NCBI GenBank assembly: GCA_043738235.1
Contig: JAYSZC010000383.1
Location: forward strand, 1-36,040
From: Lewinellaceae bacterium
GTDB taxonomy: Bacteria; Bacteroidota; Bacteroidia; Chitinophagales; Saprospiraceae
Direction: 5' to 3'
Length of the DNA: 36,040 nt
The number at the start of each line of letters is the position of its first letter. The first letter of the stretch is position 1. A model generated the notes under the pieces. That model was not told where the DNA came from, did no database searches, and worked only from the letters and a program-made list of their open reading frames with translations. Positions 2,239 to 19,318 of this stretch are shown here, in pieces. The translations under genes were made by a program, and so were the position numbers.

Positions 2239-2246
2239 TTAATTTA

Positions 2247-2254: not shown

Positions 2255-2258
2255 TCGA

Positions 2259-3538: not shown

Positions 3539-4589
3539 ACATCGAATTCCCCCAGCCCACAATGAACACGGACAACAAAATCACCCCAATGCCTACAATA
3601 ACCGTCGCCAACGTGCGGCGGCTCACCCCTTTCCATTCTTTCAAAAACAGTCCCCAGGCGCTGGAAATCAGGATAATGAAAGCCATGTGCAGAATCCAGG
3701 AACTGGCGCCGTTGCCGAGTTTGGACTCGCCCATGCCGTAGAAAAAGAATTGCATAAACCAGGTGGTGCCCGCCAGCGCTGCCCAGCCGTAATTACTCAG
3801 CAAAGGCGATTTGACATTCCGGTAGTCGCCAAAAGACTTGTTGCGCGCATTGAGCACCATACTCCACAGGAAATTGGTGGTCAGGCCGCCCCAAAGCAGC
3901 ACCACAAAAATCACGTTGTTCTGGAAAAGCGGGTTGGCGCCGCGTTCGATGGCTACGTGCGCCATGTCTTTTCCGGCCTCGATGCCGAAGTTGAAACAGG
4001 CCGAGAGGATGCCGGAAATGGTAGCAACGATCAGCCCTTTTACCAGGTTAAATTCTGCTACGCCTTCTTTTTTGGCCGCATCGTCCAGTTCGCGTTCTTT
4101 CAGCATACCCGCTCTGCCGCAAATGGCGATACCCGCCAGACAAACCAGGACGCCGAATAAAATCAACTGTCCGCCGGAACTGGCAAACATCTCGCCGATG
4201 CCGACTTTACCTGCAACAGGGTTGATCGCATAATACATGGAAGGTACCAGCGCTCCGAATGCCGAACAGTATCCCAAAGCGACGCTCATGCCGAGACTCA
4301 TGCCCAGATAGCGCATCGAAAGGCCGAAAGTCAGTCCGCCGATGCCCCAGAGCAGCCCGAAAAAGTATGTCCAAAAAATGGTACTGCCATCGGTGCTGCG
4401 GATAATACCCATAAAATCGGGCACCGTCAGCGTGGCGGCGACAAAGGGCACAATCAGCCACGAAAACACGCCGCCAACGATCCAGGCGCTTTCCCAGGAC
4501 CAACCCTTGACCCGCCGGAAAGGCACATAAAAACTACCGGACGCAAAGCCGCCGATGAAGTGAAAAATGATACCGAATACTACTTCCAT
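3537..4589 (-). CDS. rhaT: L-rhamnose/H+ symporter RhaT
   Basis: The ORF is open to 4646, but ATG at 4589 (MEVVFGIIFHFIGGFASGSFYVPFRRVKGWSWE...) aligns with the N-terminus of E. coli RhaT as I recall it ([28 protein letters not shown]). Similarity continues throughout (MRYLGMSLGMS, FNLVKGL, WFMQFFFYG, LKEW). It is a polytopic membrane protein. Confidence 0.85.
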   Translation of the reverse strand: MEVVFGIIFHFIGGFASGSFYVPFRRVKGWSWESAWIVGGVFSWLIVPFVAATLTVPDFMGIIRSTDGSTIFWTYFFGLLWGIGGLTFGLSMRYLGMSLGMSVALGYCSAFGALVPSMYYAINPVAGKVGIGEMFASSGGQLILFGVLVCLAGIAICGRAGMLKERELDDAAKKEGVAEFNLVKGLIVATISGILSACFNFGIEAGKDMAHVAIERGANPLFQNNVIFVVLLWGGLTTNFLWSMVLNARNKSFGDYRNVKSPLLSNYGWAALAGTTWFMQFFFYGMGESKLGNGASSWILHMAFIILISSAWGLFLKEWKGVSRRTLATVIVGIGVILLSVFIVGWGNSM

Positions 4590-4603
4590 GATTATTCCAT
4601 TAT

Positions 4604-4726
4604 GGTTGATAAAAGTTGATAAGGGTTGATGAAGGTTGATATTCAAGCGCTCGAAAAGAGTAAAATCGCTTCATTTTCGAGCAGTTGAATATCAACCTTA
4701 TCAACCTTTATAAACCCTCATCAACC
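4604..4726. repeat. inverted array of helically phased GGTTGAT / ATCAACC boxes around a central hairpin
   Basis: GTTGAT occurs at 4605, 4615, 4625 and 4635, exactly 10-bp phasing. The mirror ATCAAC boxes are at 4691, 4700, 4710 (degenerate ATAAAC) and 4720. The central stem is gctcgaaaa (4649-4657) / ttttcgagc (4674-4682), plus ttcaa/ttgaa (4642-4646 / 4685-4689). Confidence 0.85.
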
Positions 4727-4741
4727 TGTTGAGACAACTGC

Positions 4742-7700
4742 CTAATTATTTTCTTTCTTCCCTTCAAATGACATCCCCATCGCTTCCAGTTTCACCCCGA
4801 TCACCTTGCCGCCGCTGTCGCGCACAAACTGGAACATCGCCTGCCCGTTCGCATCGAAACGGTCGGCAGTGGAGGTCGCTTTCAACGCGCCCTTTTCTCC
4901 GCCATTGTCGGACATCAGGCTTCCGTTCTCGACGCTGAATTTGATAAATTCAAAAGGAAGTCCCGAGAATTTGTACTTCCCGGCAAAAGCCTCCAATTCG
5001 GAAACCGCAAGTTGTGCACCGGGCATACTGGCCGCAAGCGCTTCCGCCGCGAGCATTTCAGGCGTTTGAAATTTGATACCGGTCAGTACAAACAAACTCT
5101 GTCCTGCAGGCGCCTTTTCATTTTTGAAAACGAGGTAAATATTATGTAGCCCGGCAGGTGCGTTCAAAGGTGCAATGACTTTTTCAGCTCCAAACCCGGG
5201 CTTTTCCGATGCTTCGATAAAAGCGGTTTGTCCCACCAAAGGCCCATCCGGTTTATCCAGGCGTAGTTCCAGCAAACCGCCGGCGGCATTCATACCTTCT
5301 TTGGGGGCAGATACCATAAAATCTACCTGGCTTATTCCGGCCAGATCGAGTTGTTCAAACATAATCCAGGAGCCTGAACTGCTCACGATAGTCAGTTTGG
5401 TAGCGCCGAAAGTCATTTTTTGTATTTTTTCGTACTGACTGCCCATGTGCGGGTTCATGGAAGGATTGCGCAGCACATAGACCTGCTCTGAGGTCTGAGC
5501 AGGTAAACCCATGAATCCACGATCTTTGTACGCTGCACGCAACAGGTACACACCCTCTCCCTTATCGCCTTCCGGTACGGCAGCCACGAATTCGCCTTCC
5601 GTAGCCAGCCGGGGTTTTACGTCGGCCAGACTGAGGATGTAATCGGCAATGACTTCAGCATCCGCCTGTTTGATTTGTGGGTGCGCCGCCATGGCTATAT
5701 CGCCCCAGGCGCCGCTGCCGCCATTGATGATTTTATCGGCGATCAGTTTTACTGCATCTGCCTGGCCTTTGTATTTCTGTGCCACGAGGCGGTATTCCGG
5801 GCCTACGGATTTTTTATCCGCAAAATGGCAGGACTGACAGTCGCTACCGGCCATCAGTTTGGCGCCGGGCGCAAAGGAAGCCGAGGCGTCTGCGTCGCGG
5901 TGACCACGCGCAATGGCTTCTTTATCATAACCTTCTGCCAGATAATCAGCGGTAAACACAACGGCGTTATCGTTGATTGTTCCCATGGCAAGGCTGCCGT
6001 CTTCTTTATCCGTTACTTTCACTGCGTAGTTGATTTTTTGGTTGGGGAAAAAGAAAGAGCGATTGGTGTTGGCGCCCAGTTCAAGTTCGAGTTTGGGCGG
6101 TTCATTGCCCGCCACCAGATCGAGCGAGCGGCTGTTGCTCAAGCCCTGGGGATCGGTCACGGTAAGCGTGGCCTTGTACACCCCTTTCTTTTTCAGTGTC
6201 AAGCTGGGATTGGCCGTGGTAAATACCTGCGCTTTGCCCTTGCCCGCCGCTGGAGCAATTTTCCATTCGTAGCGCAGCGCATCGCCGTCGTAATCTGTTG
6301 TGCCTTCCGAAGAAAGCTGCAGGGTCAGCGGCACAGCGCCTGCTGTCTGGTTGGCGCTGACATTCACCACCGGTTTGCGGTTGCCGGCGCTGTATTCGAT
6401 GCGGACCAGGCGGGCGTCGTCGTTCTCCTGAAACCAGCCGGTGCCGTATTCGAGCATCCAGAGGTCGCCGTTGTGGTCAAATTCCATGTCCATGGGATTC
6501 GAGAATTTTTCGCTCGGCATAAAGCGTTCCATCGAAACGAAATTGCCTGCCGCATCCATCGTCACCGCCATCATCCAGCCGCGCATCCAGTCGTAGATGA
6601 GTAGTTTGCCTTCGTAATAATCCGGGAAAACGCGCGCCGCGCCGGAAAAGTCATTTTTATAAAAAACTGGTCCCGCCATGGCATTTCGACCGCCTGTGCC
6701 GACCAGCGGAAATTCCTTGGAGGCATCATACGGGTACCAGATAAATGCTTTTTGAGCGGGTGGCAGCACTTCCTGACCGGTGTTGTTCGGCGATTGATTC
6801 AGCGGTTTTTCCACCTGGTAATAAGCGGCGGCAGTGCTGTCGGCGTAGTTATAATCGCGGTATGCCTGGTTGTCGCCCACAAAATGCGGCCAGCCGAAAT
6901 TACCGGCCCGACGCGCCTGCCCCACTTCGTCGTAGCCTATCGGGCCGCGCAAAGAATCGGGTTTACTGGCATCGGGGCCGACTTCACCCCAATACACGAA
7001 ACCTGTTTTATGGTCAACAGAGATTCGGAACGGATTGCGGTGGCCCATACTGAAAATTTCCGGGCGGGTTTTGGGGGCGCCTTTTGGGAACAGGTTGCCC
7101 TCCGGCACCGTGTACGTGCCATCGGCCTGCGGGCGGATGCGGATGATTTTGCCGCGCAGGTCGTTGGTATTGGCCGACGATTTTTGGGCATCCCAGGGGC
7201 CGCGGCCCGGACGTTCGTCGATGGGTGCATAGCCGTCGGCACGCGGGCTGCTGTTGTCGCCCGTAGAAAGATAAAGATTGCCCGCTGCGTCCCAGGCGAT
7301 GGAGCCGCCGGTGTGGCAGCATTCTTCGCGTTGCACAGCCACTTCCAGCAATACTTTTCTGGAATCCATCAGCAGTTCGTCGCCGCGCAATTCATAGCGG
7401 GCCAGGATATTTTTCGGCTCGTTGCCGGCAGGCGAATAGTAGAGGTAAATCCAGTGGTTTTGTTCAAAATTCGGGTCTTTACTCAGGCCGAGCAATCCGT
7501 CTTCAGCTTCCGATTCTTTGCCTTCTTTGCTGGTGTATTTGGTGCTGACCGGGATGGTGGCGATGGTGCGCACATCTCCTCTTTTTGGGTCGTAGAGTTT
7601 CAAATCACCATGTCGTTCGATGAACAGCACCCGCCCGTCGCGGAAAGTCGTCAGTTCCATGGGTTCGTTGAGTTTTTCCTTCAGAACCACCTTTGTAAAG

Positions 7701-8494
7701 CGGTTTTCCTCCGGCATCAACTGCGTTCGTACTTTGCCGTAATTCAGATTGGCATTCATCACCCAGCGCAAACCTTCGAGCAGGTGGCGCAGGAAAAGCG
7801 GCTCCGAGTAAGTCTCATCCGTGTGACCCAGGCTGGTGTAAAAGGCCCGGCCGCCGTCGTATTCGTGGTACCAGGCGGATGGGTGCCAGTCGCCCATGGT
7901 GCCGCCGATGTAGGTTTTTTCATCAATGGTAAGCAGCACTTTTACGTCGGGATTCATGTTTTTAAAACTGTAAAACTCGTCCATACGCTTCCAGGGATCG
8001 GGTAAAAAAGACGTTGAAGCGTGGGTTTTATCGTGAACGTGGTACTCACCGGGTTGAACATTGCTCGGCGTGGACGGGTGGTCTTTGAAATAAGCGCCGG
8101 CCAGTTTGCCATACCAGGGCCAGTCGTATTCTGTGTCCGTTGCGGCATGGACGCCGAGATAGCCGCCGCCTGCCTGGATATAGCGTTCAAAAGCATTTTG
8201 TTGGAGCGGGTTGAGCACATCGCCGGTTGTATTCAGGAAAATCACCGCAGCATACCGGCGCAGGTTTTTTTCGTTGAACAGCGTAGCATCTTCCGTCGTA
8301 TCCACCGAAAAACCATTTTCGACACCGAGTTTCTGAATGGCGGCCTTGCCGGCGCCAATGGAGGCGTGTCGAAAAACGGTTGTTTTACTAAAGACCAATA
8401 TCCTGTTTTGAGCAAAGGAAAAGGTGTAACATATACCTAGCAAAAGGTTTATCAGGGCAATTCTTACGACGAGTTGAAAAAGATGTTGAATCAT
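4742..8494 (-). CDS. secreted multidomain oxidoreductase: ThuA-like + PQQ-dependent (soluble glucose/sorbosone-type) sugar dehydrogenase beta-propeller + PKD + class I cytochrome c + CBM6-like + DUF3471-like C-terminal domain
   Basis: 1250-aa ORF with a signal peptide (…YTFSFA-Q).
- ThuA-like block: ILVFSKTTVFRHASI…GGGYLGVHAATD…FYTSLGH.
- GSDH-type propeller motifs: HTGGSIAWDAAGNLYLSTGD, GKIIRIRP, FSMGHRNPFRISVD.
- PKD-like block: VPLTLQLSSEGTTDYDGDALRYEW…TLTVTDPQG.
- Heme motif CQSCH at nt 5825-5839.
- CBM6-like segment: GLLELRLDKPDGPLVG. Confidence 0.8.
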   Translation of the reverse strand: MIQHLFQLVVRIALINLLLGICYTFSFAQNRILVFSKTTVFRHASIGAGKAAIQKLGVENGFSVDTTEDATLFNEKNLRRYAAVIFLNTTGDVLNPLQQNAFERYIQAGGGYLGVHAATDTEYDWPWYGKLAGAYFKDHPSTPSNVQPGEYHVHDKTHASTSFLPDPWKRMDEFYSFKNMNPDVKVLLTIDEKTYIGGTMGDWHPSAWYHEYDGGRAFYTSLGHTDETYSEPLFLRHLLEGLRWVMNANLNYGKVRTQLMPEENRFTKVVLKEKLNEPMELTTFRDGRVLFIERHGDLKLYDPKRGDVRTIATIPVSTKYTSKEGKESEAEDGLLGLSKDPNFEQNHWIYLYYSPAGNEPKNILARYELRGDELLMDSRKVLLEVAVQREECCHTGGSIAWDAAGNLYLSTGDNSSPRADGYAPIDERPGRGPWDAQKSSANTNDLRGKIIRIRPQADGTYTVPEGNLFPKGAPKTRPEIFSMGHRNPFRISVDHKTGFVYWGEVGPDASKPDSLRGPIGYDEVGQARRAGNFGWPHFVGDNQAYRDYNYADSTAAAYYQVEKPLNQSPNNTGQEVLPPAQKAFIWYPYDASKEFPLVGTGGRNAMAGPVFYKNDFSGAARVFPDYYEGKLLIYDWMRGWMMAVTMDAAGNFVSMERFMPSEKFSNPMDMEFDHNGDLWMLEYGTGWFQENDDARLVRIEYSAGNRKPVVNVSANQTAGAVPLTLQLSSEGTTDYDGDALRYEWKIAPAAGKGKAQVFTTANPSLTLKKKGVYKATLTVTDPQGLSNSRSLDLVAGNEPPKLELELGANTNRSFFFPNQKINYAVKVTDKEDGSLAMGTINDNAVVFTADYLAEGYDKEAIARGHRDADASASFAPGAKLMAGSDCQSCHFADKKSVGPEYRLVAQKYKGQADAVKLIADKIINGGSGAWGDIAMAAHPQIKQADAEVIADYILSLADVKPRLATEGEFVAAVPEGDKGEGVYLLRAAYKDRGFMGLPAQTSEQVYVLRNPSMNPHMGSQYEKIQKMTFGATKLTIVSSSGSWIMFEQLDLAGISQVDFMVSAPKEGMNAAGGLLELRLDKPDGPLVGQTAFIEASEKPGFGAEKVIAPLNAPAGLHNIYLVFKNEKAPAGQSLFVLTGIKFQTPEMLAAEALAASMPGAQLAVSELEAFAGKYKFSGLPFEFIKFSVENGSLMSDNGGEKGALKATSTADRFDANGQAMFQFVRDSGGKVIGVKLEAMGMSFEGKKENN

Positions 8495-8573
8495 ATAGAA
8501 TGAAATTCATTAAATGTGTGAAATGGAAATAAACGACCAAAAGTAATAGCAATCACAGCAGTGTATACTTCGC

Positions 8574-11500
8574 TTACTCCCGTACGCCTTCAAATTGTCC
8601 CCCCATAATCGTCACTGTCAGACCAATTACCTTACCCGCTGCATTTCGGGTAAAGCGCACAGGCGCTTCTCCGCCCAGAAAAACATCTTTCTGCTCCGGA
8701 TCGGGTTCGAGCGTTTGGGTAGAAAAAAGCACTTTGGATACCAATACGCCTTTTTCATCCACTATTTCGATATGTTGGAAAGGCAAACCTTCCACTTTAT
8801 ACTTGCCTGTGTAGTCGCTGAAATTGACTTTGACTATTTTGACACCGCCGCCTGCCACAACGAATCGGTATTTCCCGGAGCCGACTTTCAGCACAACATG
8901 GCCGTTTTCCATGCCTGTTACCCGGATATCGGGAACTTCGGCGAGCGGTTTCCCATTTTCCGTAATATCTGCCGCAGCTAATGCGGGGATATAAACGGTT
9001 CCGGTGGTGTTGGCCGGAATTTCCACTTCCAGCGTCAGGTTTTTTTCGTCGCGTTGCCAGCGGCTGGCTGCCAGGCCGTACAAAGTTTGCTGGTCTGCCG
9101 CCGCCTGCGTAAATCCGCCGCCGGGCCGGGGTTGAATACGGATGGATTTATAACCCGGCGCATCGGCATCGAGGCCTGTCATCACGCGGTACATCCAGTC
9201 GCCGATGGCGCCGTAGGCATAGTGGTTGAAAGAATTCATGGATGCCTCCTGGAAAGTGCTGTCGGGCTTGATGCCGTCCCAGCGTTCCCAGATGGTGGTA
9301 GCGCCCATCGTAACGGGGTACAGCCAGGACGGGTAGGTTTTTTGATTTAACAGTTTGTAGGCCAGGTCGTTGTAGCCGAAACGGGTCAGGACATGGCAGA
9401 TGTAAGGCGTACCGAGAAAGCCCGTGGTGAGGTGATTGTTGTAACTTGAGATATTGTCCGCCAGGTTTTGGGCTGCCTTGGCGCGCTTGTTTTCCGGCAG
9501 CATATCAAATTGCAGGGCCAATACATAAGCCGTTTGAGTGGGCGAAGCAGGGCGTCCGTTGGGGGAAATGTACTCGTTCAGGTAAGCGGTTTTTATTTTT
9601 TTCAATAATTCGGAATAAGCCGCCACCTCGTCTTTTTTACCCAATACTTCCGCTGCATTGATTAAGAGTTGGGTGGAATGCGCGTAAAAACACTGCGCAA
9701 TCAGGTATTTGTCGGTAATGGCCGAGCGGCCGTCTCTGTCGTCGTTGATGCTGTAAAACAGCCAGTCGCCGAAGTGAAAACCCGTGTTCCAGAGGTCGTT
9801 TTTGCTTTTTGCGCGCATAAATTCGACCCAGGCTTTCATACTCGGGTACTGGTCTTCGAGGATGCGGCGGTCGCCGTAAGCGAGCCACATATTCCAGGGA
9901 ATGATGGTGGCCACGTCAGCCCAGCCGGTGGAGGCGCCCTGGGTTGGCCCCAGCACATTGGGTATGACCCAGGGTACCATGCCGTTGGGTTGCTGGTCGG
10001 CTGCTACATCTTTAAGCCATTTGGCAAAAAAGTTATGCACGTCGAAATTGTACGCAGCCGTGCGACTGAAGGCCTGCGCGTCGCCCGTCCAGCCCAGCCG
10101 TTCATCGCGTTGCGGGCAGTCGGTCGGCACATCGAGGAAGTTGCCGCGCTGGCCCCACTGGATGTTTTTTTGAAGTTGGTTGACCAATGGATCGGAAGTG
10201 CTGAAACTGCCCGTGGGTCTCATAGCGGAGTACAGCGCGACCGCCGTTATGTTTTCGGGTTTTAATTCGCCGGGGTAACCTGTAATTTTAGCGTAGCGGA
10301 AACCGTGGAAAGTGAAGTGCGGTTCGAAGGTTTCGTAGTCAGAATTGACAACTTTTGAAAAGTTGTCAATTCTTTCGCCGCGCAGTATCCAGTTATCGGT
10401 GCAGTGTGCAGCGCGCAAGTTATCGGTGTAAAAATTGCCCTGTTTGTCCAATACTTCGGCGAATAGCAGCACGACGCGGTCGCCGCTTTTCCCTTTCGCT
10501 TTCAATTCGACCCAACCGACGAGGTTTTGCCCGAAATCGGCCACTAATTCGCCTTTGGGCGTTCGGAAAATATTGACCGGCGTAAAGGTTTCGCGCTTGC
10601 GAATCGGTTCGTTGTAGGTGCCGATGAGATTGTCTTTGGGGATATCTTTCACCGCCGCAGCACTCCATTTCGAGTCGTTGAAACCATGCGAAGACCAGCC
10701 CTGCTGCTCCAGGCGAGCATCGTAGGTTTCGCCGTGGTAAATTTCCGAACTGCGGATGGGGCCGTCTGTGGAACATTTCCAGCCGGCATCGGTGCCGATG
10801 GTTTCCCGGCTCCCGTCGGCGTACAGGATGTCGAGTTGCAAAAGCAGCGCTACATCGGAGCCGTAAAACTCCTTGTCGTTGGCGAAACCGATGTAGCCGC
10901 GCCACCAGCCGCTGCCGAGTGTGGCCCCGATGGTGTTGGCGCCATTGGTGAGCAATTTTGTTACATCGTAGGCCTGGTACTGGATGCGTTTTTGATAGGC
11001 GGTCCAGCCGGGTGTGAGGTAGTCCTGACCGACGCGCTGACCATTGATCTGTGCTTCATACAAACCGTGCGCGGTGATATAGGCCGTTGCCGAAGCGATT
11101 TTTTTCTTAGTCGTAAATTCTTTGCGGAACATGAGACTTGGATGCGCAGGGTCTTCCGGCGCCGGAAGCCCTATCCACTGCGCTTTCCAGTCTGCAGCGC
11201 TCAGAAGTCCCATTTGCCAGGAGGCCGGCGCTGTCCAGTCGGATACATTTCCCGCGTTGTCCCAGACCCGCACGCGCCACCAGTAGCCGACGCCCGACTG
11301 CAATGCGGGGCCGCCGTATGGCACCCAGACCGAGGCATCGGACTGAATTTTGCCGGACTTCCAGAGTAGTTTTTTTCCTGCTGAAAGTTCAGCCTGGCTG
11401 GCGGCTACCTGGATTTCATACGCGGTTTGCAGCACGTTGCGGCGCTCGGCGGCGAGTTGCCAGCTGAAGCGCGGCTGCGTCACGTCGAGGCCGATCGGGT

Positions 11501-11600
11501 TGTCGAGGTTTTCAATGCGCGGGTACAGGACGCGCACTTGCGCCTTTGCTGCGTGGCAGATAAGGATTAGGGCGATGATCAAGATTGATTTAAGATTCAT
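8574..11600 (-). CDS. alpha-L-rhamnosidase, glycoside hydrolase family 78, with an extra DUF3471-like C-terminal domain
   Basis: 1008-aa ORF with a signal peptide (MNLKSILIIALILICHAAKA-Q). GH78 signatures are FHGFRYAKI, DVPTDCPQRDERLGWTGDAQ and NSFNHYAYGAIGDW. Confidence 0.85.
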   Translation of the reverse strand: MNLKSILIIALILICHAAKAQVRVLYPRIENLDNPIGLDVTQPRFSWQLAAERRNVLQTAYEIQVAASQAELSAGKKLLWKSGKIQSDASVWVPYGGPALQSGVGYWWRVRVWDNAGNVSDWTAPASWQMGLLSAADWKAQWIGLPAPEDPAHPSLMFRKEFTTKKKIASATAYITAHGLYEAQINGQRVGQDYLTPGWTAYQKRIQYQAYDVTKLLTNGANTIGATLGSGWWRGYIGFANDKEFYGSDVALLLQLDILYADGSRETIGTDAGWKCSTDGPIRSSEIYHGETYDARLEQQGWSSHGFNDSKWSAAAVKDIPKDNLIGTYNEPIRKRETFTPVNIFRTPKGELVADFGQNLVGWVELKAKGKSGDRVVLLFAEVLDKQGNFYTDNLRAAHCTDNWILRGERIDNFSKVVNSDYETFEPHFTFHGFRYAKITGYPGELKPENITAVALYSAMRPTGSFSTSDPLVNQLQKNIQWGQRGNFLDVPTDCPQRDERLGWTGDAQAFSRTAAYNFDVHNFFAKWLKDVAADQQPNGMVPWVIPNVLGPTQGASTGWADVATIIPWNMWLAYGDRRILEDQYPSMKAWVEFMRAKSKNDLWNTGFHFGDWLFYSINDDRDGRSAITDKYLIAQCFYAHSTQLLINAAEVLGKKDEVAAYSELLKKIKTAYLNEYISPNGRPASPTQTAYVLALQFDMLPENKRAKAAQNLADNISSYNNHLTTGFLGTPYICHVLTRFGYNDLAYKLLNQKTYPSWLYPVTMGATTIWERWDGIKPDSTFQEASMNSFNHYAYGAIGDWMYRVMTGLDADAPGYKSIRIQPRPGGGFTQAAADQQTLYGLAASRWQRDEKNLTLEVEIPANTTGTVYIPALAAADITENGKPLAEVPDIRVTGMENGHVVLKVGSGKYRFVVAGGGVKIVKVNFSDYTGKYKVEGLPFQHIEIVDEKGVLVSKVLFSTQTLEPDPEQKDVFLGGEAPVRFTRNAAGKVIGLTVTIMGGQFEGVRE
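10341..10373. repeat. perfect 33-bp palindrome inside the GH78 coding sequence, exactly 11 in-frame codons
   Basis: agaattgacaactttt-g-aaaagttgtcaattct, 16/16 arm pairs. On the coding strand it encodes RIDNFSKVVNS (codons 410-420). It shares the core TTGACAACTT…AAGTTGTCAA with the intergenic hairpin at 3507-3538. Confidence 0.9.
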
Positions 11601-11660
11601 GTGTCGATTTTTTTATCATTGTGCAATTAAAACACGGAGATACGGACTAGCCACGAATTT

Positions 11661-14600
11661 TTATTTCTTTTCCAGAATTTTAACCGGTCCCATCAGCCCT
11701 GAAGGCAATAATGCTGCGTCGGCCTGGTAAAATGGCATGGTGGTGTAGCTTATTTTTTGGGTTATGCCGGGCTGCTGGTCGCCGATAAGCCTGTTTACCC
11801 AGAGGTTAGTGACTTTCACTTCGAGGGTATTTTGGCCCGGTTTCAGGGCGGCAAGGAGTTTAACCCTGAATGGTTTTTTCCAGACGGTACCCAGCGATTT
11901 TCCATTTAAAATCACTTCCGCGATGTTTTTTACCTCTCCGAGATCTATTTCAAAGCTTGCGCCTGTGGTTGTTTTGGGCGCCGTGAAGGTGGTGCTGTAC
12001 GTAGCGGTTCCTGAAAAATATTTGATGCCTGCATCCGGGTTTTCCGTCCAGGATTGTAATGCCAGGAAAGTGGCGGTTGCCGGTGCGCCGCGTTTTTCAG
12101 GAAAGGAGACGCTCCAGGGGCCGTCAATGCTCAGCAGTTGTGTTTCTTTTACTTTCGGCAATGTGAAAGCAAGTGCAGGCGCTTTGCCTTCAAAAACAAC
12201 AAAAAACGCTTCATGCGACTCCAGATGCAGGGGTATGATGGTCTGGCCGCCTTTGATCTGGTAGGATACTTTGCGCACTTCGCCTGTCTCCGGGTGCCAG
12301 ATTTTGGCTACTTTTCCGGAAACCCTGAACGTAGCCTCTATGTCCTGTGCCCGGTCATTCCGGTTATCGACCCAATAGATGTCCCGATCGACTGTTTTCC
12401 GGTGCACATAGAGTACTTCGGTATCGTTCGAGGGCTTGGTGTACGTGAAATCGGCATTAATTTTTAAGTCGGAAAGCACTTTGTCCAGGGCCTGATTGGA
12501 CCGCACATGAGCCTTTGGTTTTCCCCAAACTTCCGCAACGATGGCCTGAAATTCGGCCTGGTTGTCGCTCAGGCTGGGTGTTTTTTCCGGTACTACGCCC
12601 GTAACGGTTACGCCCGCTTTTACCAGATCCCGTATTTTTTTCAACACCGGCAGCGACATGGTTTTTGCGTTTTCGTCCAGTACCAGCACGGTGTACGTCA
12701 TGCCACTCGCAGTCGTCATTTTACCATTTTTGGCTGTAATTATACGCAGCAGGGCGTCGGCATTGACAAAATCGTAGTTGTAGCCTGTGGGAATCTCCGG
12801 CATTTTTTTGCCAAAAAGAGAGGTGATATTGTTGTCTTCTCCATAAAAATAGAGGATATCGGCTACAAATTTGCCTTGTTGCAGCATGAAACAACTGCGG
12901 GAAAGATAGGCTGTCCATGCGCTTGCCTGTTCCGCCCAGGTTTCGTGCCGGGTGAACCATTGCCCGAATGGGCCGAGGCCGAAACCCGGCTGTTTGTCGT
13001 CCAAAGGTTGATGCACTGAAGTGTGTATGACGAAGCGGTTCAAGCCGTTTGCCAATTCGAGGTCGGCAGAAGATTTCAGGTTTTCGGGGTGATAGGACCA
13101 TGCCAGGCCGCCCACTCCCAGGGCCGTAAGCGATTCGGCTGCCACCAGGTTTTGACCATAAATATGCGCCACGGACGCCGATTCCCGGATATCCGCCGTG
13201 TATTTGAGTTGACTGAACCCGTTCATGACAGAGGGTGTCCACAAGGCAGACATCGGAACAGCGGCTGTCCGTTTTACGTCCATACCATCGGCCATCAATG
13301 CCCGCCCATCTTCGTGCGATTCGGTGTAACGTTTCATACCGCGTTGTTTCAGCAACGTCGTCAATCCATCGTAATGGTATTCCACGATCATTTCCCCGAT
13401 TGTTTTGCGGTAATCCCAGAGGAAGTTTTCGCCGGCTTCAGCGCTTTTGACAATCCGTCCGGTCAAAACAGGCATCCAGGGCAAGAGGCTGTAACCCCGG
13501 CGTTTTTCAAATTCCTGCGGCATATTATTCGTCCAGTTTTGCACGCCGGCTTCCCAACTATCGGTGATGACATATTGAAGTCCGCCTTTGTCGCCCATCA
13601 GACCGCCTGTTGCGTCCTTGTATTTGTCGAGGTAGGTATTAAAATAGGCATTGATGGCCGTTGGGTTCAATTTATCCACCTCCAGGCCTGTCGCTTCGGG
13701 CGAAGCCGGGTGGTTTTGTTTGCCTGTCAGGGAATAGCCGAACCGGACAATATTCCAGTTTCCGGCGGGCACCGCCCAATTCAGCGTACCGTCTGCCTGG
13801 AGTTTACCGGTCAGATCAATCACCTCCTCAATGGCTTCTGTGGAAGCCGGCGTCGGATTCGTATAGGAATTATTGGAAATGGCATAACCTGCTTTTTCTT
13901 CAAATCTGTTGATGCGCATACCCGTGTGCAACACCACTTCTGCTACATCGGTACCCAGGGACGGCTTCGGGGCACTTGGAGGAAGCCCCGCGAACATGGC
14001 GCCGAGATCGGGCACCGGCGGCGGATTATTGAAGGTAATTCTGAAAAATTTGGCTGAAACAGCCGGGAATGCGATGGTTTGCTGCAATGTATTTCCGGCA
14101 GGGATAAAACATATTCTTTTGAAATGCACGCCATCATCGCTCGATTCAAGGCTGCGGTCTTCTTTCTTTTCTCCAAACAAACCAAAAGGCCCCCTGTCGC
14201 CGCCACCGACGACCGTAACGGCTTTTATGCTGACGGGCTGCGCAAAAGCATATTGAATCCACGCCAATCCTTTTTCCAAATCAGTGGGCAAAAGGCTGGT
14301 TTTTGACAGATTTCCGTCCGTCAATTGTGTCAGATCAAAACTGCCGCCGCTGGATGTAATGGCGGGTTTTAAATCGCTCAACAACAATTCTGTGTCGGGT
14401 AGTTTGTATGCGACCACCGAAATATCCCGGTAGTATTCGGGCAATTTGGATACATGACCCGTAAGCATATCACCGCCCAGGGGTATATCCCGAAAAACGC
14501 CTGTTGTAGCGGGTGGTTGAGGCAGCTTGCCGGAAAAGGTCTGACCGCCTTTCACAGGGGTTTCCGTCCAGACTATTTTTTTCATGCCATCGGCAGGCAT

Positions 14601-14975
14601 TACCCAGGGGCCGCCACTTTCACTCCAGCCGGGAGAGCCGGCAATAGCCATTTCGAGGCCCAGTTTTTTGGCTAATTCGGTCGTGAATTTGAAAGCGTCT
14701 TTCCATTCGGGGGTCATGTAATCCAGTTTTTTGGACACGACCTGTGGCGTACCGAGGTTGGCATCAAAATTCTGAAAACCGCCGATACCCACGCGCTTCA
14801 TCCATTCGAGGTCTTTCTGGATGCCTTCTTTGGTGATATTGCCGTTCATCCAGTGCCACCAGACGCGGGGTTGGGCGGCATTGGGCGGATTTTTGAAATT
14901 GGTCTGGAGGGTGGTCTGGCTCTGCAAGGAGGTGGCGAACCAGATAAACAAGGAAAAGATCAGTAAGTGGCGCAT
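11661..14975 (-). CDS. large secreted glycoside hydrolase, GH106-like alpha-L-rhamnosidase (family call tentative)
   Basis: 1104-aa ORF with a signal peptide. The N-terminal PRVWWHWMNGNITKEGIQKDLEWMKRVGIGGFQNFDA signature and the C-terminal galactose-binding-like jelly roll ending NLWVNRLIGD…SGLMGPVKI are as I recall for GH106-type enzymes. It sits between two GH78-type genes. Confidence 0.65.
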   Translation of the reverse strand: MRHLLIFSLFIWFATSLQSQTTLQTNFKNPPNAAQPRVWWHWMNGNITKEGIQKDLEWMKRVGIGGFQNFDANLGTPQVVSKKLDYMTPEWKDAFKFTTELAKKLGLEMAIAGSPGWSESGGPWVMPADGMKKIVWTETPVKGGQTFSGKLPQPPATTGVFRDIPLGGDMLTGHVSKLPEYYRDISVVAYKLPDTELLLSDLKPAITSSGGSFDLTQLTDGNLSKTSLLPTDLEKGLAWIQYAFAQPVSIKAVTVVGGGDRGPFGLFGEKKEDRSLESSDDGVHFKRICFIPAGNTLQQTIAFPAVSAKFFRITFNNPPPVPDLGAMFAGLPPSAPKPSLGTDVAEVVLHTGMRINRFEEKAGYAISNNSYTNPTPASTEAIEEVIDLTGKLQADGTLNWAVPAGNWNIVRFGYSLTGKQNHPASPEATGLEVDKLNPTAINAYFNTYLDKYKDATGGLMGDKGGLQYVITDSWEAGVQNWTNNMPQEFEKRRGYSLLPWMPVLTGRIVKSAEAGENFLWDYRKTIGEMIVEYHYDGLTTLLKQRGMKRYTESHEDGRALMADGMDVKRTAAVPMSALWTPSVMNGFSQLKYTADIRESASVAHIYGQNLVAAESLTALGVGGLAWSYHPENLKSSADLELANGLNRFVIHTSVHQPLDDKQPGFGLGPFGQWFTRHETWAEQASAWTAYLSRSCFMLQQGKFVADILYFYGEDNNITSLFGKKMPEIPTGYNYDFVNADALLRIITAKNGKMTTASGMTYTVLVLDENAKTMSLPVLKKIRDLVKAGVTVTGVVPEKTPSLSDNQAEFQAIVAEVWGKPKAHVRSNQALDKVLSDLKINADFTYTKPSNDTEVLYVHRKTVDRDIYWVDNRNDRAQDIEATFRVSGKVAKIWHPETGEVRKVSYQIKGGQTIIPLHLESHEAFFVVFEGKAPALAFTLPKVKETQLLSIDGPWSVSFPEKRGAPATATFLALQSWTENPDAGIKYFSGTATYSTTFTAPKTTTGASFEIDLGEVKNIAEVILNGKSLGTVWKKPFRVKLLAALKPGQNTLEVKVTNLWVNRLIGDQQPGITQKISYTTMPFYQADAALLPSGLMGPVKILEKK

Positions 14976-15168
14976 GATATTTTATTTTTGCTTCTTCAGA
15001 ATTTCAGTACGACATTTCACATTTGCAGCGCAAAGGGAAACGAAGTTCCTTATTTCTAAAGGCAAAGAGACAGTATATCTGCGTTTTATCCTTTATCCTA
15101 ATTGGGCAGTTCCATGTACTTTTTGGTATGATTTCTCACACTACCTCACATTTTATTCTATAGTGCCC

Positions 15169-15201
15169 AGACCTATAAGGTTTTTGAAACCTTATAGGTC
15201 T
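15169..15201 (-). terminator. 15-bp perfect-stem hairpin in the GH78-like / GH106-like intergenic region
   Basis: agacctataaggttt-ttg-aaaccttataggtct, read directly. It lies downstream of the 15343 stop on the minus strand. No U-tract follows. Confidence 0.45.
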
Positions 15202-15223
15202 CGTTCCACGGAAATTGAGCATC

Positions 15224-15319
15224 GAGGTGACATCTGCGAGGCACGAGCAGGTGTCATCTCAATGCGGAAATGTTGTGGTTTCGAGATGTCACTTGCTCGT
15301 ACCTCGCAAATGACACCTC
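15224..15319. repeat. long imperfect inverted repeat (37-nt arms, 32/37 complementary, 22-nt spacer) carrying four GGTGWCATCT-like boxes
   Basis: Arm 1 is gaggtgacatctgcgaggcacgagcaggtgtcatctc (15224-15260). Arm 2 is gagatgtcacttgctcgtacctcgcaaatgacacctc (15283-15319). I compared them base by base. Confidence 0.85.
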
Positions 15320-15342
15320 TTCACTGGCCATAGGTACTCGCA

Positions 15343-17712
15343 TTAAATGGTCCATTTATTCCCGCCCGCTTTCAGCACCATACGTTTGCCTTTCCAAACA
15401 AGGCTACCTGTTATTCCGGGAGGCAAGTCAATCCGGATGTTCCAGTGTCCATTTACAAGTTCATAACTGACTGGCAGCGCACCGTTTGGATGCGGGATAC
15501 TTCCGCTAATTTTTTTCAAATCGCTCAAATGCGGCTCAATTTTTACTTTTGAAAAACCGGGGCCGTCGCTGTCGATGCCCAGCACGGTTCTGAAAAACTC
15601 GATATTCGGGCTGGATCCCCAGGCATGGCAATCCGAGCGGGCAGCGTTGACGTCCGATTTTTCTGCCCAGGTGGTGAGGCCCATCGCCATATTTTCCCGC
15701 CAGATGTCGAGCCAGTTCAGGTAATCATTTCCGAAACCCGCTTTGATCAGGGCTTCGTGCAGGTAGTATTTGAAATAAATGGAGGCAGGCGCGAGGCTGG
15801 TGTCGGCGAGTAATTGTCCGGCCAGTTGCCTGGCTGCCGTGCCGTGCACCGTTCCCGTCAGGATAGCCAGCGTATTGGCGTGCTGGGAGTAAAAATCTTT
15901 TTCCGCGCGGTCGGCGTACAGCTTTCTGGCGGGGTTCCAGTACTTGTTTTGTATGGTCATTTTCAATCGCGCTGCATGGCCGTTATACAACGCCGCATAA
16001 TCCTTCATCCCCAGTTTGTTTTCCAGGTCGGCGGCCAACTGGTATGCCCAGAGCAATTGCAAATCCAGCAAAGCCGAGGTGCCGTCATCGCTCATGGGGC
16101 CTACACCCGAGACCCATCCTTTCACATCCACCCAGTCAGTGAACATCCAGTGCGGCACGTCCTTCAGGGAGCCGTCCGGCAGTTGGTAAGTCCTGAAATA
16201 TTCCATGACTTGCCGCATCCCGGGCAATTTGTTTTTCACAAAATCCAAGTCTTTGCCATACCTGCTGTAATCGTGCAACATACCCACGTACCACAGGGAA
16301 AAGGTCGGGATATATTGCGGCGTGTACGACGGATGCCGGCTGAGCGTCACACCTTCCGGTTGGCGCGATTGATCCATCTGGTTGAGCGCATTGCGCAAAA
16401 GCCGCTCGTCGCCGCTGTTGTAAATGGACACCAGGCCTTGAATACGCGTATCGCCGATGTACTGCAATTGCTCATAGTAGGGGCAGTCAAAATAGGTTTC
16501 AACGGCGCAAAGCCGCGCGGTACGCCAGCCGATTTCGAGCATTTGCCCCATTTCAGGGCGCTCCGATTCGAGGTTTGCATTGTACTGAAACGGATAACCG
16601 GTGAATATGCCATAGATGTCTTCCAGCACGAGCGGTTCCGTTTGCGTACGCACGGTTACTTGCACAAAACGGTACGTTCGGAAAGAAAGGGCGGTAAAAA
16701 CCTGCCCCGCAGAGCCGTCTGACAGGATACTGTCTTTGCGCCCGATCATCTGTTTGCCTGCGGTCTCGTTGCGGTCGCCTTTCGCCGGATATTTGGTAAA
16801 CAATGCTTCTGCATAAGTCAGGGAAATGGAAGCCCCTTTACCGCCGCTGAAAACGAGCGTCGTGTATGCATTGGTGAGATAAGTCTGATCCAGCAGGACA
16901 GTGGCTACGGTGTTGGCGGGAATGCGCAAATTTGTTTTTTCAGCAGGAAAAGAACCCGGAACCACGAGTCCTTCCGTGTGCAGCACTTTTCCGAATCTTT
17001 CGGGTTTCAACTCCATGGGCGGGATGGAGGAGGGCGTTAGCATCCAACCGCTGACCGTACCGTAGGGGCCTTTTACCGTTTTCGGTACACCGTGGAAAAT
17101 GATTTGCGCGTTTTTCCAGGCGGCATCCTGAAAATCAGTGTTTTGCCAGTTTTTGGGCTGTAATTCCATCCGGATGAGCTCGCCCGGGCCTGCCACATAG
17201 TACGTCTGCATCGACACTTGTATGGGGCTGTAACTGTTGTCGCGGATACATTTCCAACTGCTGTTGGTATTCGCTGCCGACTCGGCGGCGGTGGCGCCTT
17301 GCAGGATAAAACCAGTTTGCAGGGAAATTTGCGCCTCGGGTTTCCAGTCGCCTTCGTTCCAGACCTGGGCAGCCACGATATTTTTCCCGGCCTGCAAATA
17401 GGACGCTATGTCCACCGTTTCAAAATTCCAGTGATTCAGGTCGCCTCTGGCGGGGCCGAGCGATACTAATTGCCCGTTTACGAACAGTTTGTAACGGTTG
17501 TCGGCTGAAACATGGATCACAAAAGCAGCAGGTTTTGTGGAAAGTTCCAGCGTTTTTCGGAACAAATAGACGCCATAATCGTGGGCTGGCTCATCGGGAA
17601 CCCTTATCCAGGATGCCTCCCAATATTTTTGAAGCAAAGCGGGCGCTACGGTTTGCGCGTTTGCAACAACTGTTAGTAAAAGGCAGAAGGTAATGTTTAG
17701 CCACTTTTTCAT
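15343..17712 (-). CDS. GH78-related alpha-L-rhamnosidase-like six-hairpin glycosidase
   Basis: 789-aa ORF with a signal peptide (…VVANA-Q). It has an (alpha/alpha)6-type catalytic region with FDCPYYEQLQYIGDTRIQ, a variant of the GH78 DCPxR(D/E)ERLGWxGD block, and a CHAWGSSP motif. It starts 10 nt downstream of the preceding gene, which suggests an operon. Confidence 0.7.
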   Translation of the reverse strand: MKKWLNITFCLLLTVVANAQTVAPALLQKYWEASWIRVPDEPAHDYGVYLFRKTLELSTKPAAFVIHVSADNRYKLFVNGQLVSLGPARGDLNHWNFETVDIASYLQAGKNIVAAQVWNEGDWKPEAQISLQTGFILQGATAAESAANTNSSWKCIRDNSYSPIQVSMQTYYVAGPGELIRMELQPKNWQNTDFQDAAWKNAQIIFHGVPKTVKGPYGTVSGWMLTPSSIPPMELKPERFGKVLHTEGLVVPGSFPAEKTNLRIPANTVATVLLDQTYLTNAYTTLVFSGGKGASISLTYAEALFTKYPAKGDRNETAGKQMIGRKDSILSDGSAGQVFTALSFRTYRFVQVTVRTQTEPLVLEDIYGIFTGYPFQYNANLESERPEMGQMLEIGWRTARLCAVETYFDCPYYEQLQYIGDTRIQGLVSIYNSGDERLLRNALNQMDQSRQPEGVTLSRHPSYTPQYIPTFSLWYVGMLHDYSRYGKDLDFVKNKLPGMRQVMEYFRTYQLPDGSLKDVPHWMFTDWVDVKGWVSGVGPMSDDGTSALLDLQLLWAYQLAADLENKLGMKDYAALYNGHAARLKMTIQNKYWNPARKLYADRAEKDFYSQHANTLAILTGTVHGTAARQLAGQLLADTSLAPASIYFKYYLHEALIKAGFGNDYLNWLDIWRENMAMGLTTWAEKSDVNAARSDCHAWGSSPNIEFFRTVLGIDSDGPGFSKVKIEPHLSDLKKISGSIPHPNGALPVSYELVNGHWNIRIDLPPGITGSLVWKGKRMVLKAGGNKWTI

Positions 17713-17722
17713 CTCGATGTGT

Positions 17723-18616
17723 TTATAAAATTTTCTTTAAATAACCCATGCTACTGGTGATACTGGCGAAGGCGTCTTTCGGCATATCGTGTTCCACGAA
17801 GTAGTGTTTGACCCCACCCGTTTTGGCGTAAGAGAAAATTCTTTTAAAATCAATGACCCCTTCCCCGACAGGCATCAGGTTTTTGTAACCTTTGTCAAAA
17901 TCCTTGACATGCAGCAAAGGGAACCGGCCCTTGTGTTTTTTAAATAATGCTACCGGATCGACGCCGGCTTTTGATACCCATGCCAGATCGAGTTCAAATT
18001 TCATCACATCGGCCTTGATTTGCGAAGCGAAATAATCGAAAGGGATGGTCCCTTCCACGTTCAAAAACTCTTTGTCGTGGTTGTGGTAGCAAAATGTCAG
18101 GCCGGCTTTTTTTGCCAGTTCGCCGGCTTTATTCAATATTTCCGCGCCTTCTTTTACCTCGTCCAGCGTATCGTGCGGTATTCCAGCGCAAACCATATAT
18201 TTCACACCTCCCTCAGCCACCATGTCCACTAACTTTTGCGCCTCGTTTTTGAGCGTGTCCATTTTGGGCATTTTACTGGTATCGAATGCCGGATTGGGTC
18301 TAAAAGGCGCTCCAATAACATGGTGCGAGCGCCAGTCTAAGCCCAAACTTTTGCTCAATGCCGCAAACTCTTTGGGCGTCATGCCGTAGATGCCACCTTT
18401 CATACTAAAAGCGGATTCAAGCTCCTGAAAACCGATGGCTTTTATTTTTGTCAGATTACCTTTTACGTCCCCATCGAAACTTGGAAAAAAGGTAAATAAT
18501 TGCACGCCGATCGGCTTGCGTTTTTTGGAGATCAACATTTCACTCAGGGGGTTGGCCGACATGGCGCCAAGCGCCAGAAGCCCTGATTGTTTTAGAAAAT
18601 TTCTTCTGTTTTGCAT
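17723..18616 (-). CDS. Tat-exported sugar phosphate isomerase/epimerase family protein (xylose isomerase-like TIM barrel)
   Basis: 297-aa ORF with the twin-arginine leader MQNRRNFLKQSGLLALGAMS. The TIM-barrel pattern (FCYHNHDKEF, FELDLAW, HVKD, YFVEHD) is typical of AP-endonuclease-2/xylose-isomerase-like proteins. Confidence 0.75.
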   Translation of the reverse strand: MQNRRNFLKQSGLLALGAMSANPLSEMLISKKRKPIGVQLFTFFPSFDGDVKGNLTKIKAIGFQELESAFSMKGGIYGMTPKEFAALSKSLGLDWRSHHVIGAPFRPNPAFDTSKMPKMDTLKNEAQKLVDMVAEGGVKYMVCAGIPHDTLDEVKEGAEILNKAGELAKKAGLTFCYHNHDKEFLNVEGTIPFDYFASQIKADVMKFELDLAWVSKAGVDPVALFKKHKGRFPLLHVKDFDKGYKNLMPVGEGVIDFKRIFSYAKTGGVKHYFVEHDMPKDAFASITSSMGYLKKIL

Positions 18617-19107
18617 GATGATTGTTTTTAGAAACTGTAAGAATTATGAAGAAAACTGCAAGCCCACGCGCTCGAAACGTTCATATAGCATGTCCCTGTA
18701 GCCTGCTTTCAAATCATCAGGTAAAAAAGACCGTTCCAACAGATCGAGCCAGATTGGGAGCGCCGTTTCAAACTGCTAAGACGGTAAATATACAGGATTA
18801 AAAAAGTGTGGACATTCATTTTTTCAAACAAATGCCCACATCGCTGAAACCATTCTACTTTATGAAATCAAAACTTGTATGAAGCCGGGAGGAAATAAGC
18901 CCGGGAGGAATACTCAACGTTGAGCACAATATAGTCGGATTAAGGTAAATAAGGAGCGTAACAATCAGACGCATATGGGGTGCATTTTGTGCTATTTCAG
19001 GTGAAAATCTGCCCTTACAAGAGATATGTGTCGCTCAGACACATATTACGAAAAAAAAGTATGTTATAAAAAATAATGTACATGTTTGTTGCATTCAACT
19101 AAATTAT

Positions 19108-19284: not shown

Positions 19285-19318
19285 CTTGACGTTAGAACGT
19301 CCTTGACGTTAGAACGTC
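19285..19318 (+). repeat. perfect tandem duplication of a 17-bp unit (CTTGACGTTAGAACGTC x2) overlapping the susC start
   Basis: Copies at 19285-19301 and 19302-19318 are identical. Each contains the palindrome GACGTT-AG-AACGTC. Confidence 0.95.

Follow-up and report, generated by a model that had tools for sequence, protein, structure and literature searches.

Introduction

Glycoside cleavage by way of a 3-keto intermediate is reportedly a route that was recognised only recently as a broad alternative to hydrolysis, and to our knowledge it has so far been tied to Gfo/Idh/MocA dehydrogenases with bound nicotinamide adenine dinucleotide (NAD) or to flavin adenine dinucleotide (FAD) dehydrogenases. 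Here we analyse a 36,040-nucleotide (nt) stretch of DNA from a Lewinellaceae bacterium (GenBank assembly GCA_043738235.1, contig JAYSZC010000383.1, positions 1 to 36,040 of the forward strand; hereafter the window). In it, the genes of an exported TIM-barrel protein of family PF01261 (hereafter TIM) and of a secreted protein with ThuA, pyrroloquinoline quinone (PQQ) dehydrogenase and cytochrome c domains (hereafter the fusion), the two putative halves of a module, bracket three exported alpha-L-rhamnosidases (two GH78, one GH106). An earlier note on this DNA had suggested an oxidation/elimination route running in parallel with hydrolysis by the rhamnosidases. Our preferred reading, to which we give an even chance of being right, is a periplasmic oxidise-then-eliminate module that would act alongside hydrolysis and would be the known 3-keto-glycoside pathway in a variant coupled to the respiratory chain.

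The closest described systems include the lyases AL1 and BT1 (BT2156; PDB 8tcd, 8tcr and 8tct; bioRxiv 10.1101/2024.03.25.586180), whose metal ligands are His178/182, Asp211/214 and His237/240, whose catalytic residue is Glu272/275 and whose substrate residues are His103/107, His180/184 and Trp214/217. The AL cluster was discovered as an alpha-thiomannosidase hit, and the partners in the AL/BT pathway are a Gfo/Idh/MocA protein (AL3/BT3) and a DUF1080 protein (AL2/BT2). AtOGE of Agrobacterium tumefaciens (PMC10628242; PDB 8bvk) has a site made of His132, Asp163, His189 and Glu233, with His134 as the base; it clusters with a flavoenzyme glycoside 3-dehydrogenase in the GlycDH operon, which also encodes the hydratase AtHYD and a Gfo reductase. 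In Caulobacter, the LacABC-type FAD glucoside 3-dehydrogenases (PMC8121099) are periplasmic and cytochrome c-dependent, and such enzymes cluster with BT2156-type barrels in aerobes, whereas Bacteroides thetaiotaomicron is barred from cytochrome c-dependent dehydrogenases by its limited electron-transport chain (Liu et al.). Aerobic Bacteroidota, unlike B. thetaiotaomicron, can use dehydrogenases of this kind. The formation of 3-keto-disaccharides by ThuAB in Sinorhizobium and Agrobacterium, as cited in PMC8121099, pairs a ThuA protein with the Gfo/Idh/MocA protein ThuB. More distant are the C-glycoside deglycosidases DgpBC/CarBC, PF01261-superfamily enzymes that carry out a metal-assisted elimination from a 3-keto sugar.

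On the side of the dehydrogenase, sGDH and the aldose sugar dehydrogenases act on free aldoses, which they oxidise at C1. Their solved representatives (sGDH 1c9u, Asd 2g8s, 2ism and 3a9g) have a six-bladed GSDH propeller, a catalytic His and an HRNP motif. In Bacteroidetes, six-bladed PQQ propellers usually lie beside cytochrome c551 (bioRxiv 10.64898/2026.07.10.737718); the sGDH-type and c551-linked propellers are C1-oxidising or uncharacterised, and none is described with ThuA, PKD or CBM6 domains. CcPDH, a fungal AA12 quinohaemoprotein pyranose dehydrogenase without activity on L-rhamnose (PMC4332668), combines cytochrome b, a six-bladed PQQ domain and CBM1.

The TIM-barrel protein

The two proteins at the centre of this analysis are encoded as follows.

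17723-18616, minus strand: TIM barrel, 297 aa (PF01261, E = 7.6e-16); predicted periplasmic 3-keto-glycoside 1,2-lyase (beta-eliminase)
4742-8494, minus strand: ThuA-PQQ(GSDH)-PKD-cytochrome c-CBM6 fusion, 1250 aa, Sec-type signal

TIM, whose closest match (88% identity) comes from a Saprospiraceae metagenome-assembled genome (MAG), begins with MQNRRNFLKQSG, a twin-arginine motif that includes RRNFLK; this confirms the earlier note, which had described the protein as exported by the twin-arginine translocation (Tat) system. R4 and F7 of the motif are invariant among 38 orthologues and R5 is present in at least 90% of them. Tat export would suit a protein that needs Mn2+ or Co2+ bound during folding, prior to export.

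A sequence search of solved structures placed 8tcd/8tcr, 8tcs and 8tct at the top (E ~1e-23), followed by two Parabacteroides structural-genomics entries and 8bvk, and a profile of the 38 orthologues returned 8tcd (3.8e-41), 8tct (3.4e-37) and 8bvk (2.7e-24) from the PDB. With an AlphaFold (AF2) model of TIM (pLDDT, the score predicted for the local distance difference test, 90.2), Foldseek ranked the AL1 and BT1 lyases first to fourth in the PDB (8tcd, 8tct and 8tcr; E ~2e-21, template-modelling (TM) score 0.72-0.80), AtOGE eighth, AtHYD 21st and the 3-keto-glucoside epimerase YcjR 31st, the identities of these PDB codes being taken from the Foldseek descriptions. Identity to AL1/BT1 is only 26-29% in the Foldseek alignments, and for AtOGE the sequence searches align the C-terminal half only.

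The active site is fully aligned. TIM residues H178, D210 and H236 fall on the AL1 metal ligands His178, Asp211 and His237, and the catalytic E275 and the substrate residues H99 (H98), H180 and W213 align likewise; these residues, and also N179 of the segment H178-N179-H180, are invariant in the 38 orthologues. Since all seven active-site residues are aligned and invariant, every metal-binding and catalytic residue is kept, and the loss of such residues, which the earlier note had named as a sign against its proposal, is not seen. TIM thus has in common with AL1 and BT1 the TIM-barrel fold, the exported location (by a Tat signal, against the Sec signal of AL1), the His/Asp/His ligands, the catalytic Glu and the substrate His/His/Trp, and with AtOGE the Mn2+-type His/Asp/His/Glu site and the His-x-His motif.

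By sequence and predicted structure, TIM is a member of the AL1/BT1/AtOGE clade, and its closest solved relatives are characterised 3-keto-glycoside lyases. The likeness to keto-glycoside enzymes drawn in the earlier note is therefore upheld for the O-glycoside lyases AL1, BT1 and AtOGE but not for the C-glycoside deglycosidases DgpBC/CarBC. Kinship with the latter is ruled out, as they are absent from the sequence hits, the profile hits and the top 50 Foldseek hits; nor does the list of open reading frames (ORFs) contain a partner-subunit gene beside the TIM gene.

The ThuA-PQQ-cytochrome c fusion protein

The domains of the fusion are arranged as listed.

7760-8404, minus strand: ThuA domain (E = 2e-76; PF06283, 257 bits against a cut-off of 33.4)
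~6395-7711, minus strand: six-bladed PQQ GSDH propeller (E = 2e-37; PF07995, 129.5 bits against a cut-off of 25)
6125-6382, minus strand: PKD domain, within the fusion
5627-5872, minus strand: class I cytochrome c (E = 4e-7; CQSCH at residues 886-890, a single haem motif)
5111-5443, minus strand: CBM6 (E = 1.5e-9)
C-terminal domain of the fusion, about 110 aa

The Sec-type signal, the Pfam domains and the CQSCH motif bear out the secreted ThuA, PQQ-dehydrogenase and cytochrome c composition given in the earlier note, to which the PKD and CBM6 domains are additions. Relatives in the PDB are ThuA-like 4jqs, the PQQ enzymes 2ism, 3a9g, 1c9u and 2g8s, PKD domains and, for the cytochrome, c551 and c552 (E = 1e-15 to 1e-9). 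With sGDH and its solved relatives the fusion shares the six-bladed GSDH propeller, the catalytic His and the HRNP motif: in a phmmer alignment with sGDH, HTGG of the fusion falls on the catalytic-His motif DHQSG and the PQQ-binding motif GHRNP is kept, blades 5-6 being unaligned. Among 26 fusion homologues there is almost no variation in the catalytic His, GHRNP, the Cys/Cys/His of CxxCH or the Met ligand, and the fusion looks, from these motifs, cofactor-competent.

The propeller and the cytochrome that occur as separate genes in other Bacteroidetes are fused here. The fusion also differs from the LacABC-type enzymes, in that its PQQ propeller is joined to ThuA, cytochrome c and CBM6 and it has no GMC/FAD domain, nor has any other protein of the window. 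It resembles CcPDH in uniting a cytochrome, a six-bladed PQQ domain and a carbohydrate-binding module, but with cytochrome c and CBM6 in place of cytochrome b and CBM1. Kinship of the PQQ domain with AA12 is ruled out at the sequence level, no match to CcPDH (6JWF) being found at E <= 0.01.

The model of the ThuA domain (pLDDT 89) has a glutamine-amidotransferase-like (GATase1-like) fold with 4jqs, 4pxy and 4e5v as its top fold matches. The fold search matched only uncharacterised structural-genomics ThuA-like proteins, and for this reason no function can be transferred. Its His, Asp and Glu residues, of which about a dozen are invariant, suggest that the domain is catalytic and not a scaffold. 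ThuA is also the domain in common with ThuAB; the ThuA of the window is, however, exported and fused to a PQQ enzyme, and elsewhere adjoins PQQ enzymes. The family has more than 8000 homologues, mostly ~1150-1250 aa long, in Cytophagales, Chitinophagales and Saprospirales, for which current annotations say no more than 'ThuA domain-containing protein' or 'cytochrome c'.

Genomic contexts of the two genes

The contexts of TIM orthologues were read, by comparison with the window proteins and by Pfam scans, in 59 other loci (53 fetched genome loci and six obtained by exact look-up; locus handles, L followed by a number, are our own). In 10 of the 59, members of the TIM clade lie near exported dehydrogenases of four unrelated kinds: the ThuA-GSDH-cytochrome c fusion, ThuA together with an eight-bladed PQQ quinohaemoprotein, a DUF7133-cytochrome c protein, and GMC/FAD enzymes. 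A fusion homologue directly adjoins TIM in three loci (L018, L021 and L053) and lies within ~1.3 kb of it in two more (L005 and L045).

Three Sphingobacteriales-type hosts, Mucilaginibacter polytrichastri (L030), M. agri (L034) and a Sphingobacteriaceae MAG (L042), have the gene order GH78, TIM, stand-alone ThuA, eight-bladed PQQ dehydrogenase (L030 7202-13856). The stand-alone ThuA is 58-60% identical to the ThuA domain of the window, and the dehydrogenase, which resembles type II quinohaemoprotein alcohol dehydrogenases, has a cytochrome c inserted inside its propeller. These arrangements contain the parts of the window's putative module in unfused form, with another PQQ fold. The order in L004 (TIM 79% identical) is GH3, TIM, AraC, GH1, GH106 and a DUF7133 plus cytochrome c protein. 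In L140 (TIM 67%) it is TIM, Gluconate_2-dh3 and a GMC oxidoreductase of the family of known FAD glucoside 3-dehydrogenases, and this direct adjacency recalls the LacABC-type clusters.

GH78, GH106, GH3 or GH1 genes often share the locus with TIM and a dehydrogenase, and in some loci glycosidases alone accompany TIM (GH3 in L041, L044 and L141; GH1 and an esterase in L020; a GH78-like gene in L003). The TIM clade therefore has quinohaemoprotein, ThuA or GMC dehydrogenases and glycoside hydrolases as neighbours instead of the AL/BT partners; a Gfo/Idh/MocA gene occurs only at a distance, in L140 and L142. In a neighbour-joining tree of TIM, the dehydrogenase and glycosidase contexts turn up scattered among branches other than those of a single large Mucilaginibacter clade, whose neighbours are MacB/FtsX ABC transporter, LytTR two-component and GDSL-lipase genes; this context of the largest clade rules out one conserved partner for all TIM orthologues. 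Separately, an Acidobacteriaceae locus (L049 8647-12912) carries four PF01261 TIM-barrel genes in tandem, adjoining a cupin-type glucose-6-phosphate isomerase-like gene.

Fusion homologues were viewed in 80 metagenome loci (L057-L136). PF01261 barrels, of several subfamilies, are the commonest enzyme family beside them, accounting for 9 of the 110 immediate neighbours of 74 homologues. Those in L101 (8533-9528) and L127 (2734-3618) belong to subfamilies other than that of TIM: one resembles 4ovx, a structural-genomics entry from Planctomyces (E = 9e-76), and the other is 3ngf/YgbM/ketose-3-epimerase-like, the L101 barrel having a weak match to DgpC1. A NUDIX/NrtR-AraR-type regulator usually precedes the fusion homologues (34 loci, e.g. 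L089 9030-9779), and an NrtR-type regulator also precedes the GH3-TIM pair in L141. A 126-aa secreted protein often follows (17 loci, e.g. L087 14260-14640); it matches no Pfam family, and the window lacks a counterpart.

What holds robustly across Bacteroidota is thus the link of TIM with an exported dehydrogenase, and the link of either gene with rhamnosidases is much weaker. The earlier note had proposed co-occurrence of both genes with GH78/GH106 as a check on its route. What is borne out is the pairing of TIM with an exported dehydrogenase, and the tie to rhamnosidases proves confined to some lineages. The proposed route gains accordingly from the lyase-type TIM and from its linkage to dehydrogenases, but loses its association with rhamnosidases as a general feature.

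The rhamnoside-utilisation locus

The other features of the locus are given below.

34-2187, minus strand: bifunctional rhamnulose-1-phosphate aldolase/short-chain dehydrogenase of cytoplasmic rhamnose catabolism (NCBIfam NF006191, 1344 bits against a cut-off of 1240)
3537-4646, minus strand: RhaT, L-rhamnose/H+ symporter, at the end of the string (PF06379, E = 2e-70; NCBIfam equivalog, 541.6 bits against a cut-off of 468)
8574-11600, minus strand: GH78 alpha-L-rhamnosidase, 1008 aa, signal peptide, all five GH78 Pfam domains
11661-14975, minus strand: GH106 alpha-L-rhamnosidase, 1104 aa, signal peptide (PF17132, 1123 bits), with F5/8-type C and jelly-roll domains
14976-15342: structured spacer of 367 nt between GH78like and GH106
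15343-17712, minus strand: divergent GH78-type alpha-L-rhamnosidase (GH78like), 789 aa, signal peptide (Bac_rhamnosid6H, E = 4e-21, plus _C and _N)
19303-24401, plus strand: SusC/SusD pair, divergent from the string; SusC 19303-22506 (Plug, CarboxypepD_reg), SusD 22524-24401 (SusD_RagB)
31146-32036, plus strand: AraC-family regulator (AraC_binding and HTH_18)

All genes and domains named in the earlier note were recovered from the ORF list and the family scans, and the E-values of the named domains lie far outside the chance range. With a SusC/SusD pair, GH78 and GH106 genes and an AraC regulator, the window has the composition of a polysaccharide-utilisation locus, and we read the region as an operon for rhamnoside utilisation in an aerobic, Saprospiraceae-like member of the Bacteroidota. 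The AraC protein, an 87% identical copy of which adjoins a fusion homologue in L005, is likely to regulate the locus in response to rhamnose. Signal peptides are present on all three glycosidases, and the best solved relative of GH78like is RhaB (2okx, E = 2.4e-45). The fusion is the sole exported oxidoreductase: scans of the window proteins found no second one, no beta-glucosidase and no Gfo/Idh/MocA or DUF1080 gene, and AL3/BT3, AL2/BT2, ThuB, AtHYD and the Gfo reductase of the AtOGE operon are all without a counterpart in the window.

Along the minus-strand string the intergenic gaps are 10, 367, 60, 79 and 95 bp, with 10 bp between TIM and GH78like. The 367-nt spacer contains an inverted repeat with 37-nt arms (15224-15260 and 15283-15319, 86% complementary) and a hairpin with perfect 15-nt arms (15169-15183 and 15187-15201); its predicted RNA fold has an energy of -133 kcal/mol, with z = -8.9 against shuffled sequence. 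No Rfam family was found in the spacer or in the whole window, and the spacer has no second copy within the window. It may act in termination or attenuation, or be a small repeat element, and two transcripts may be made. A scan for sigma-70 promoters and terminators was uninformative, the host being one of the Bacteroidota, and the Bacteroidota -7 motif TAnnTTTG occurs 22 times against 22.2 expected by chance, so that operon boundaries cannot be called from it. Another hairpin, of 15 pairs and followed by a T run, lies on the minus strand at 18807-18840, ~190 nt upstream of the TIM start codon in the divergent TIM/SusC intergenic region.

Some further genes lie around the locus. Two AAA_14/DUF4143 ATPase genes on the plus strand (2259-3425 and 32224-33441), only 24% identical to each other, flank the whole of it, and the first splits RhaT from the aldolase on the strand opposite to the rhamnose genes. 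After SusC/SusD come two large FG-GAP/UnbV_ASPIC proteins and a PAP2/vanadium-chloroperoxidase-like protein, with no further glycosidases (24549-31119). On the minus strand at 33462-35154, a 178-aa FAD_binding_4 ORF (34618-35154) overlaps by ~100 nt the start of a 417-aa Fe-S (GlpC/YdiJ-like) ORF (33462-34715); together they look like a single gene for an FAD/Fe-S 2-hydroxy-acid dehydrogenase (lactate or glycolate-type) that a frameshift or a sequencing error has split.

Discussion

Our results suggest how the two proteins could act together. In a first step, the fusion would bind a glycoside or oligosaccharide and convert one of its ring hydroxyls, most plausibly that at C3, into a ketone; PQQ would hand the electrons to the c-type haem of the fusion itself, from which they would enter the aerobic respiratory chain. 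In a second step, the Tat-exported TIM, with a divalent metal held by His/Asp/His and a Glu/His base, would abstract H2 of the keto-glycoside; the aglycone or next sugar would be expelled and a 2-hydroxy-3-keto-glycal left, by the chemistry of AL1/BT1 and AtOGE. No enzyme for hydration or reduction of the glycal is encoded in the window; for this third step the ThuA domain, with its many invariant His, Asp and Glu residues, is a candidate for one of the two reactions. The proposed oxidation-elimination-hydration-reduction logic would be shared with the Agrobacterium GlycDH operon, where the oxidase is a flavoenzyme.

The substrate may be a rhamnoside, but it could equally be the beta-glycoside that remains after rhamnose removal, for example from a rutinoside. 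Alpha-L-rhamnosides, beta-D-glucosides and alpha-D-mannosides are 1,2-trans glycosides. Stereochemically, then, an AL1-type elimination from a 3-keto-rhamnoside is conceivable.

Several observations weigh against this reading. Most TIM orthologues sit elsewhere, away from rhamnosidases and fusion homologues, and about 27 of the 59 TIM loci (the one Mucilaginibacter clade), together with several others, lack a sugar context; as the loci were retrieved through peptide patterns, many of them being short or related by descent, the counts are not independent. GH78 or RhaT lies nearby in only 3 of the 80 fusion loci, neither Gfo/Idh/MocA nor DUF1080 genes occur among the 110 immediate neighbours of fusion homologues, and the three closest fusion orthologues (L056, L138 and L137) lie in loci without TIM. 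In the window itself the TIM and fusion genes are 9 kb apart with the structured 367-nt spacer in between, and since its strong hairpins separate the two ends of the string, co-transcription of TIM-GH78like with GH106-GH78-fusion-RhaT is doubtful.

There might also be no functional link at all, TIM and the fusion being independent accessory genes in a rearranging rhamnose locus and their co-location with rhamnosidases incidental. The variation of gene order among the window, L003, L056, L137 and L138 points the same way, as do the scarcity of either gene near the other or near rhamnosidases and the spacer between the two halves. Against this stands the immediate adjacency of the partners in at least five arrangements from four orders of Bacteroidota. 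By a rough estimate, which was not computed, ~10 paralogues in a 6-Mb genome would place well under 1% of genes within 1.3 kb by chance, and the adjacency is far above this. We consider the absence of any link distinctly unlikely.

Also unfavourable is that the nearest solved six-bladed PQQ relatives of the fusion are C1-oxidising aldose dehydrogenases (sGDH and aldose sugar dehydrogenases), and that no 3-keto-glycoside-forming enzyme was found among the solved or characterised six-bladed PQQ relatives; oxidation at C3 by the PQQ domain is something we purely infer. The gene sets of the closest fusion orthologues (78-90% identity), all of which adjoin a GH78-type gene, bear on the same question. 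L138 and L056 have the order ILVD_EDD, FAA_hydrolase, SDR, SDR (short-chain dehydrogenases; these four genes at 2187-6672 in L138 and 1-3623 in L056), GH78like (not in both), GH78, fusion, followed by RhaT in L056 and by the contig end in L138; in L137, GH78like is followed by the fusion; and in L003 the same upstream genes (ILVD_EDD, FAA_hydrolase and two SDRs, 25-3805) precede TIM and GH78like. This set resembles the diketo-hydrolase route for deoxy-sugar acids. The window has an SDR at its far end (35163-35936), 86-87% identical to one of those of the relatives; as it is the sole member of the set retained, the locus of the window has been rearranged. In the lineage of the window, then, the rhamnose locus stably includes the fusion, and TIM-GH78like is a variable cassette within it. 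The GH78-like gene of an 88%-identical relative (L056 3653-6021) is broken into two ORFs (261 and 486 aa), for which a frameshift or pseudogenisation is the probable cause.

It might accordingly be argued that the fusion acts in the periplasm as an sGDH/Asd-type aldose 1-dehydrogenase, turning L-rhamnose released by the rhamnosidases, or reducing ends, into lactones for respiratory energy, perhaps feeding a non-phosphorylative rhamnonate route, and that TIM is paired with another, unseen 3-dehydrogenase. The C1 chemistry of the solved relatives, the position of the ILVD_EDD, FAA_hydrolase and SDR genes directly upstream of GH78-fusion-RhaT, the matching SDR in the window and the retention of the fusion beside GH78 even where TIM is lacking all favour this view. 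However, the SDRs already present can provide a cytoplasmic rhamnose 1-dehydrogenase, RhaT imports unoxidised rhamnose, and CBM6 is hard to account for in an enzyme of monosaccharides. The view further leaves unexplained both the repeated adjacency of the fusion family to lyase-type and other PF01261 barrels and the exchange, beside the same ThuA and TIM, for an eight-bladed quinohaemoprotein of the alcohol-dehydrogenase type. On balance we hold a C1-oxidising role to be unlikely.

The order of the steps cannot be deduced from adjacency, and the fusion could instead act downstream of the lyase, oxidising the released keto-sugar or glycal after a first oxidation by a dehydrogenase encoded elsewhere. 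CcPDH, likewise a six-bladed PQQ quinohaemoprotein with a carbohydrate-binding module, prefers 2-keto-D-glucose (PMC4332668), and the lack of a glycal hydratase or reductase in the window fits this order. Yet it demands an unobserved additional exported dehydrogenase in each of the compact operons (L021, L030, L018 and L140), and the neighbour of TIM in L140 belongs to the family of known first-step glucoside 3-dehydrogenases. A downstream role of the fusion is, in our estimation, improbable.

Returning to the oxidise-then-eliminate module, the pathway type is already known, and what would be new is the ThuA-PQQ-haem c oxidising arm: in the literature searched we found no description of a ThuA-PQQ-haem c dehydrogenase in that position, and no report of a PQQ-dependent glucoside 3-dehydrogenase. 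More broadly, we propose with some hesitation, and with the chances rather against it, that the ThuA-PQQ-cytochrome c proteins and their unfused equivalents are an unrecognised class of respiratory-coupled glycoside dehydrogenases, which together with AL1-type lyases would provide non-hydrolytic, energy-conserving glycoside cleavage in aerobic Bacteroidota, with ThuA catalytic in keto-sugar processing. If true, this would explain how glycoside cleavage is coupled to respiration in aerobic soil and water Bacteroidota, and both the ThuA domain and a very large, uncharacterised family would be assigned a function that can be tested. This would also supply additional enzymes for linkages that resist hydrolases, such as those of plant phenolic glycosides after rhamnose removal, and loci scored by their glycoside hydrolases alone may understate the degradative capacity of these bacteria.

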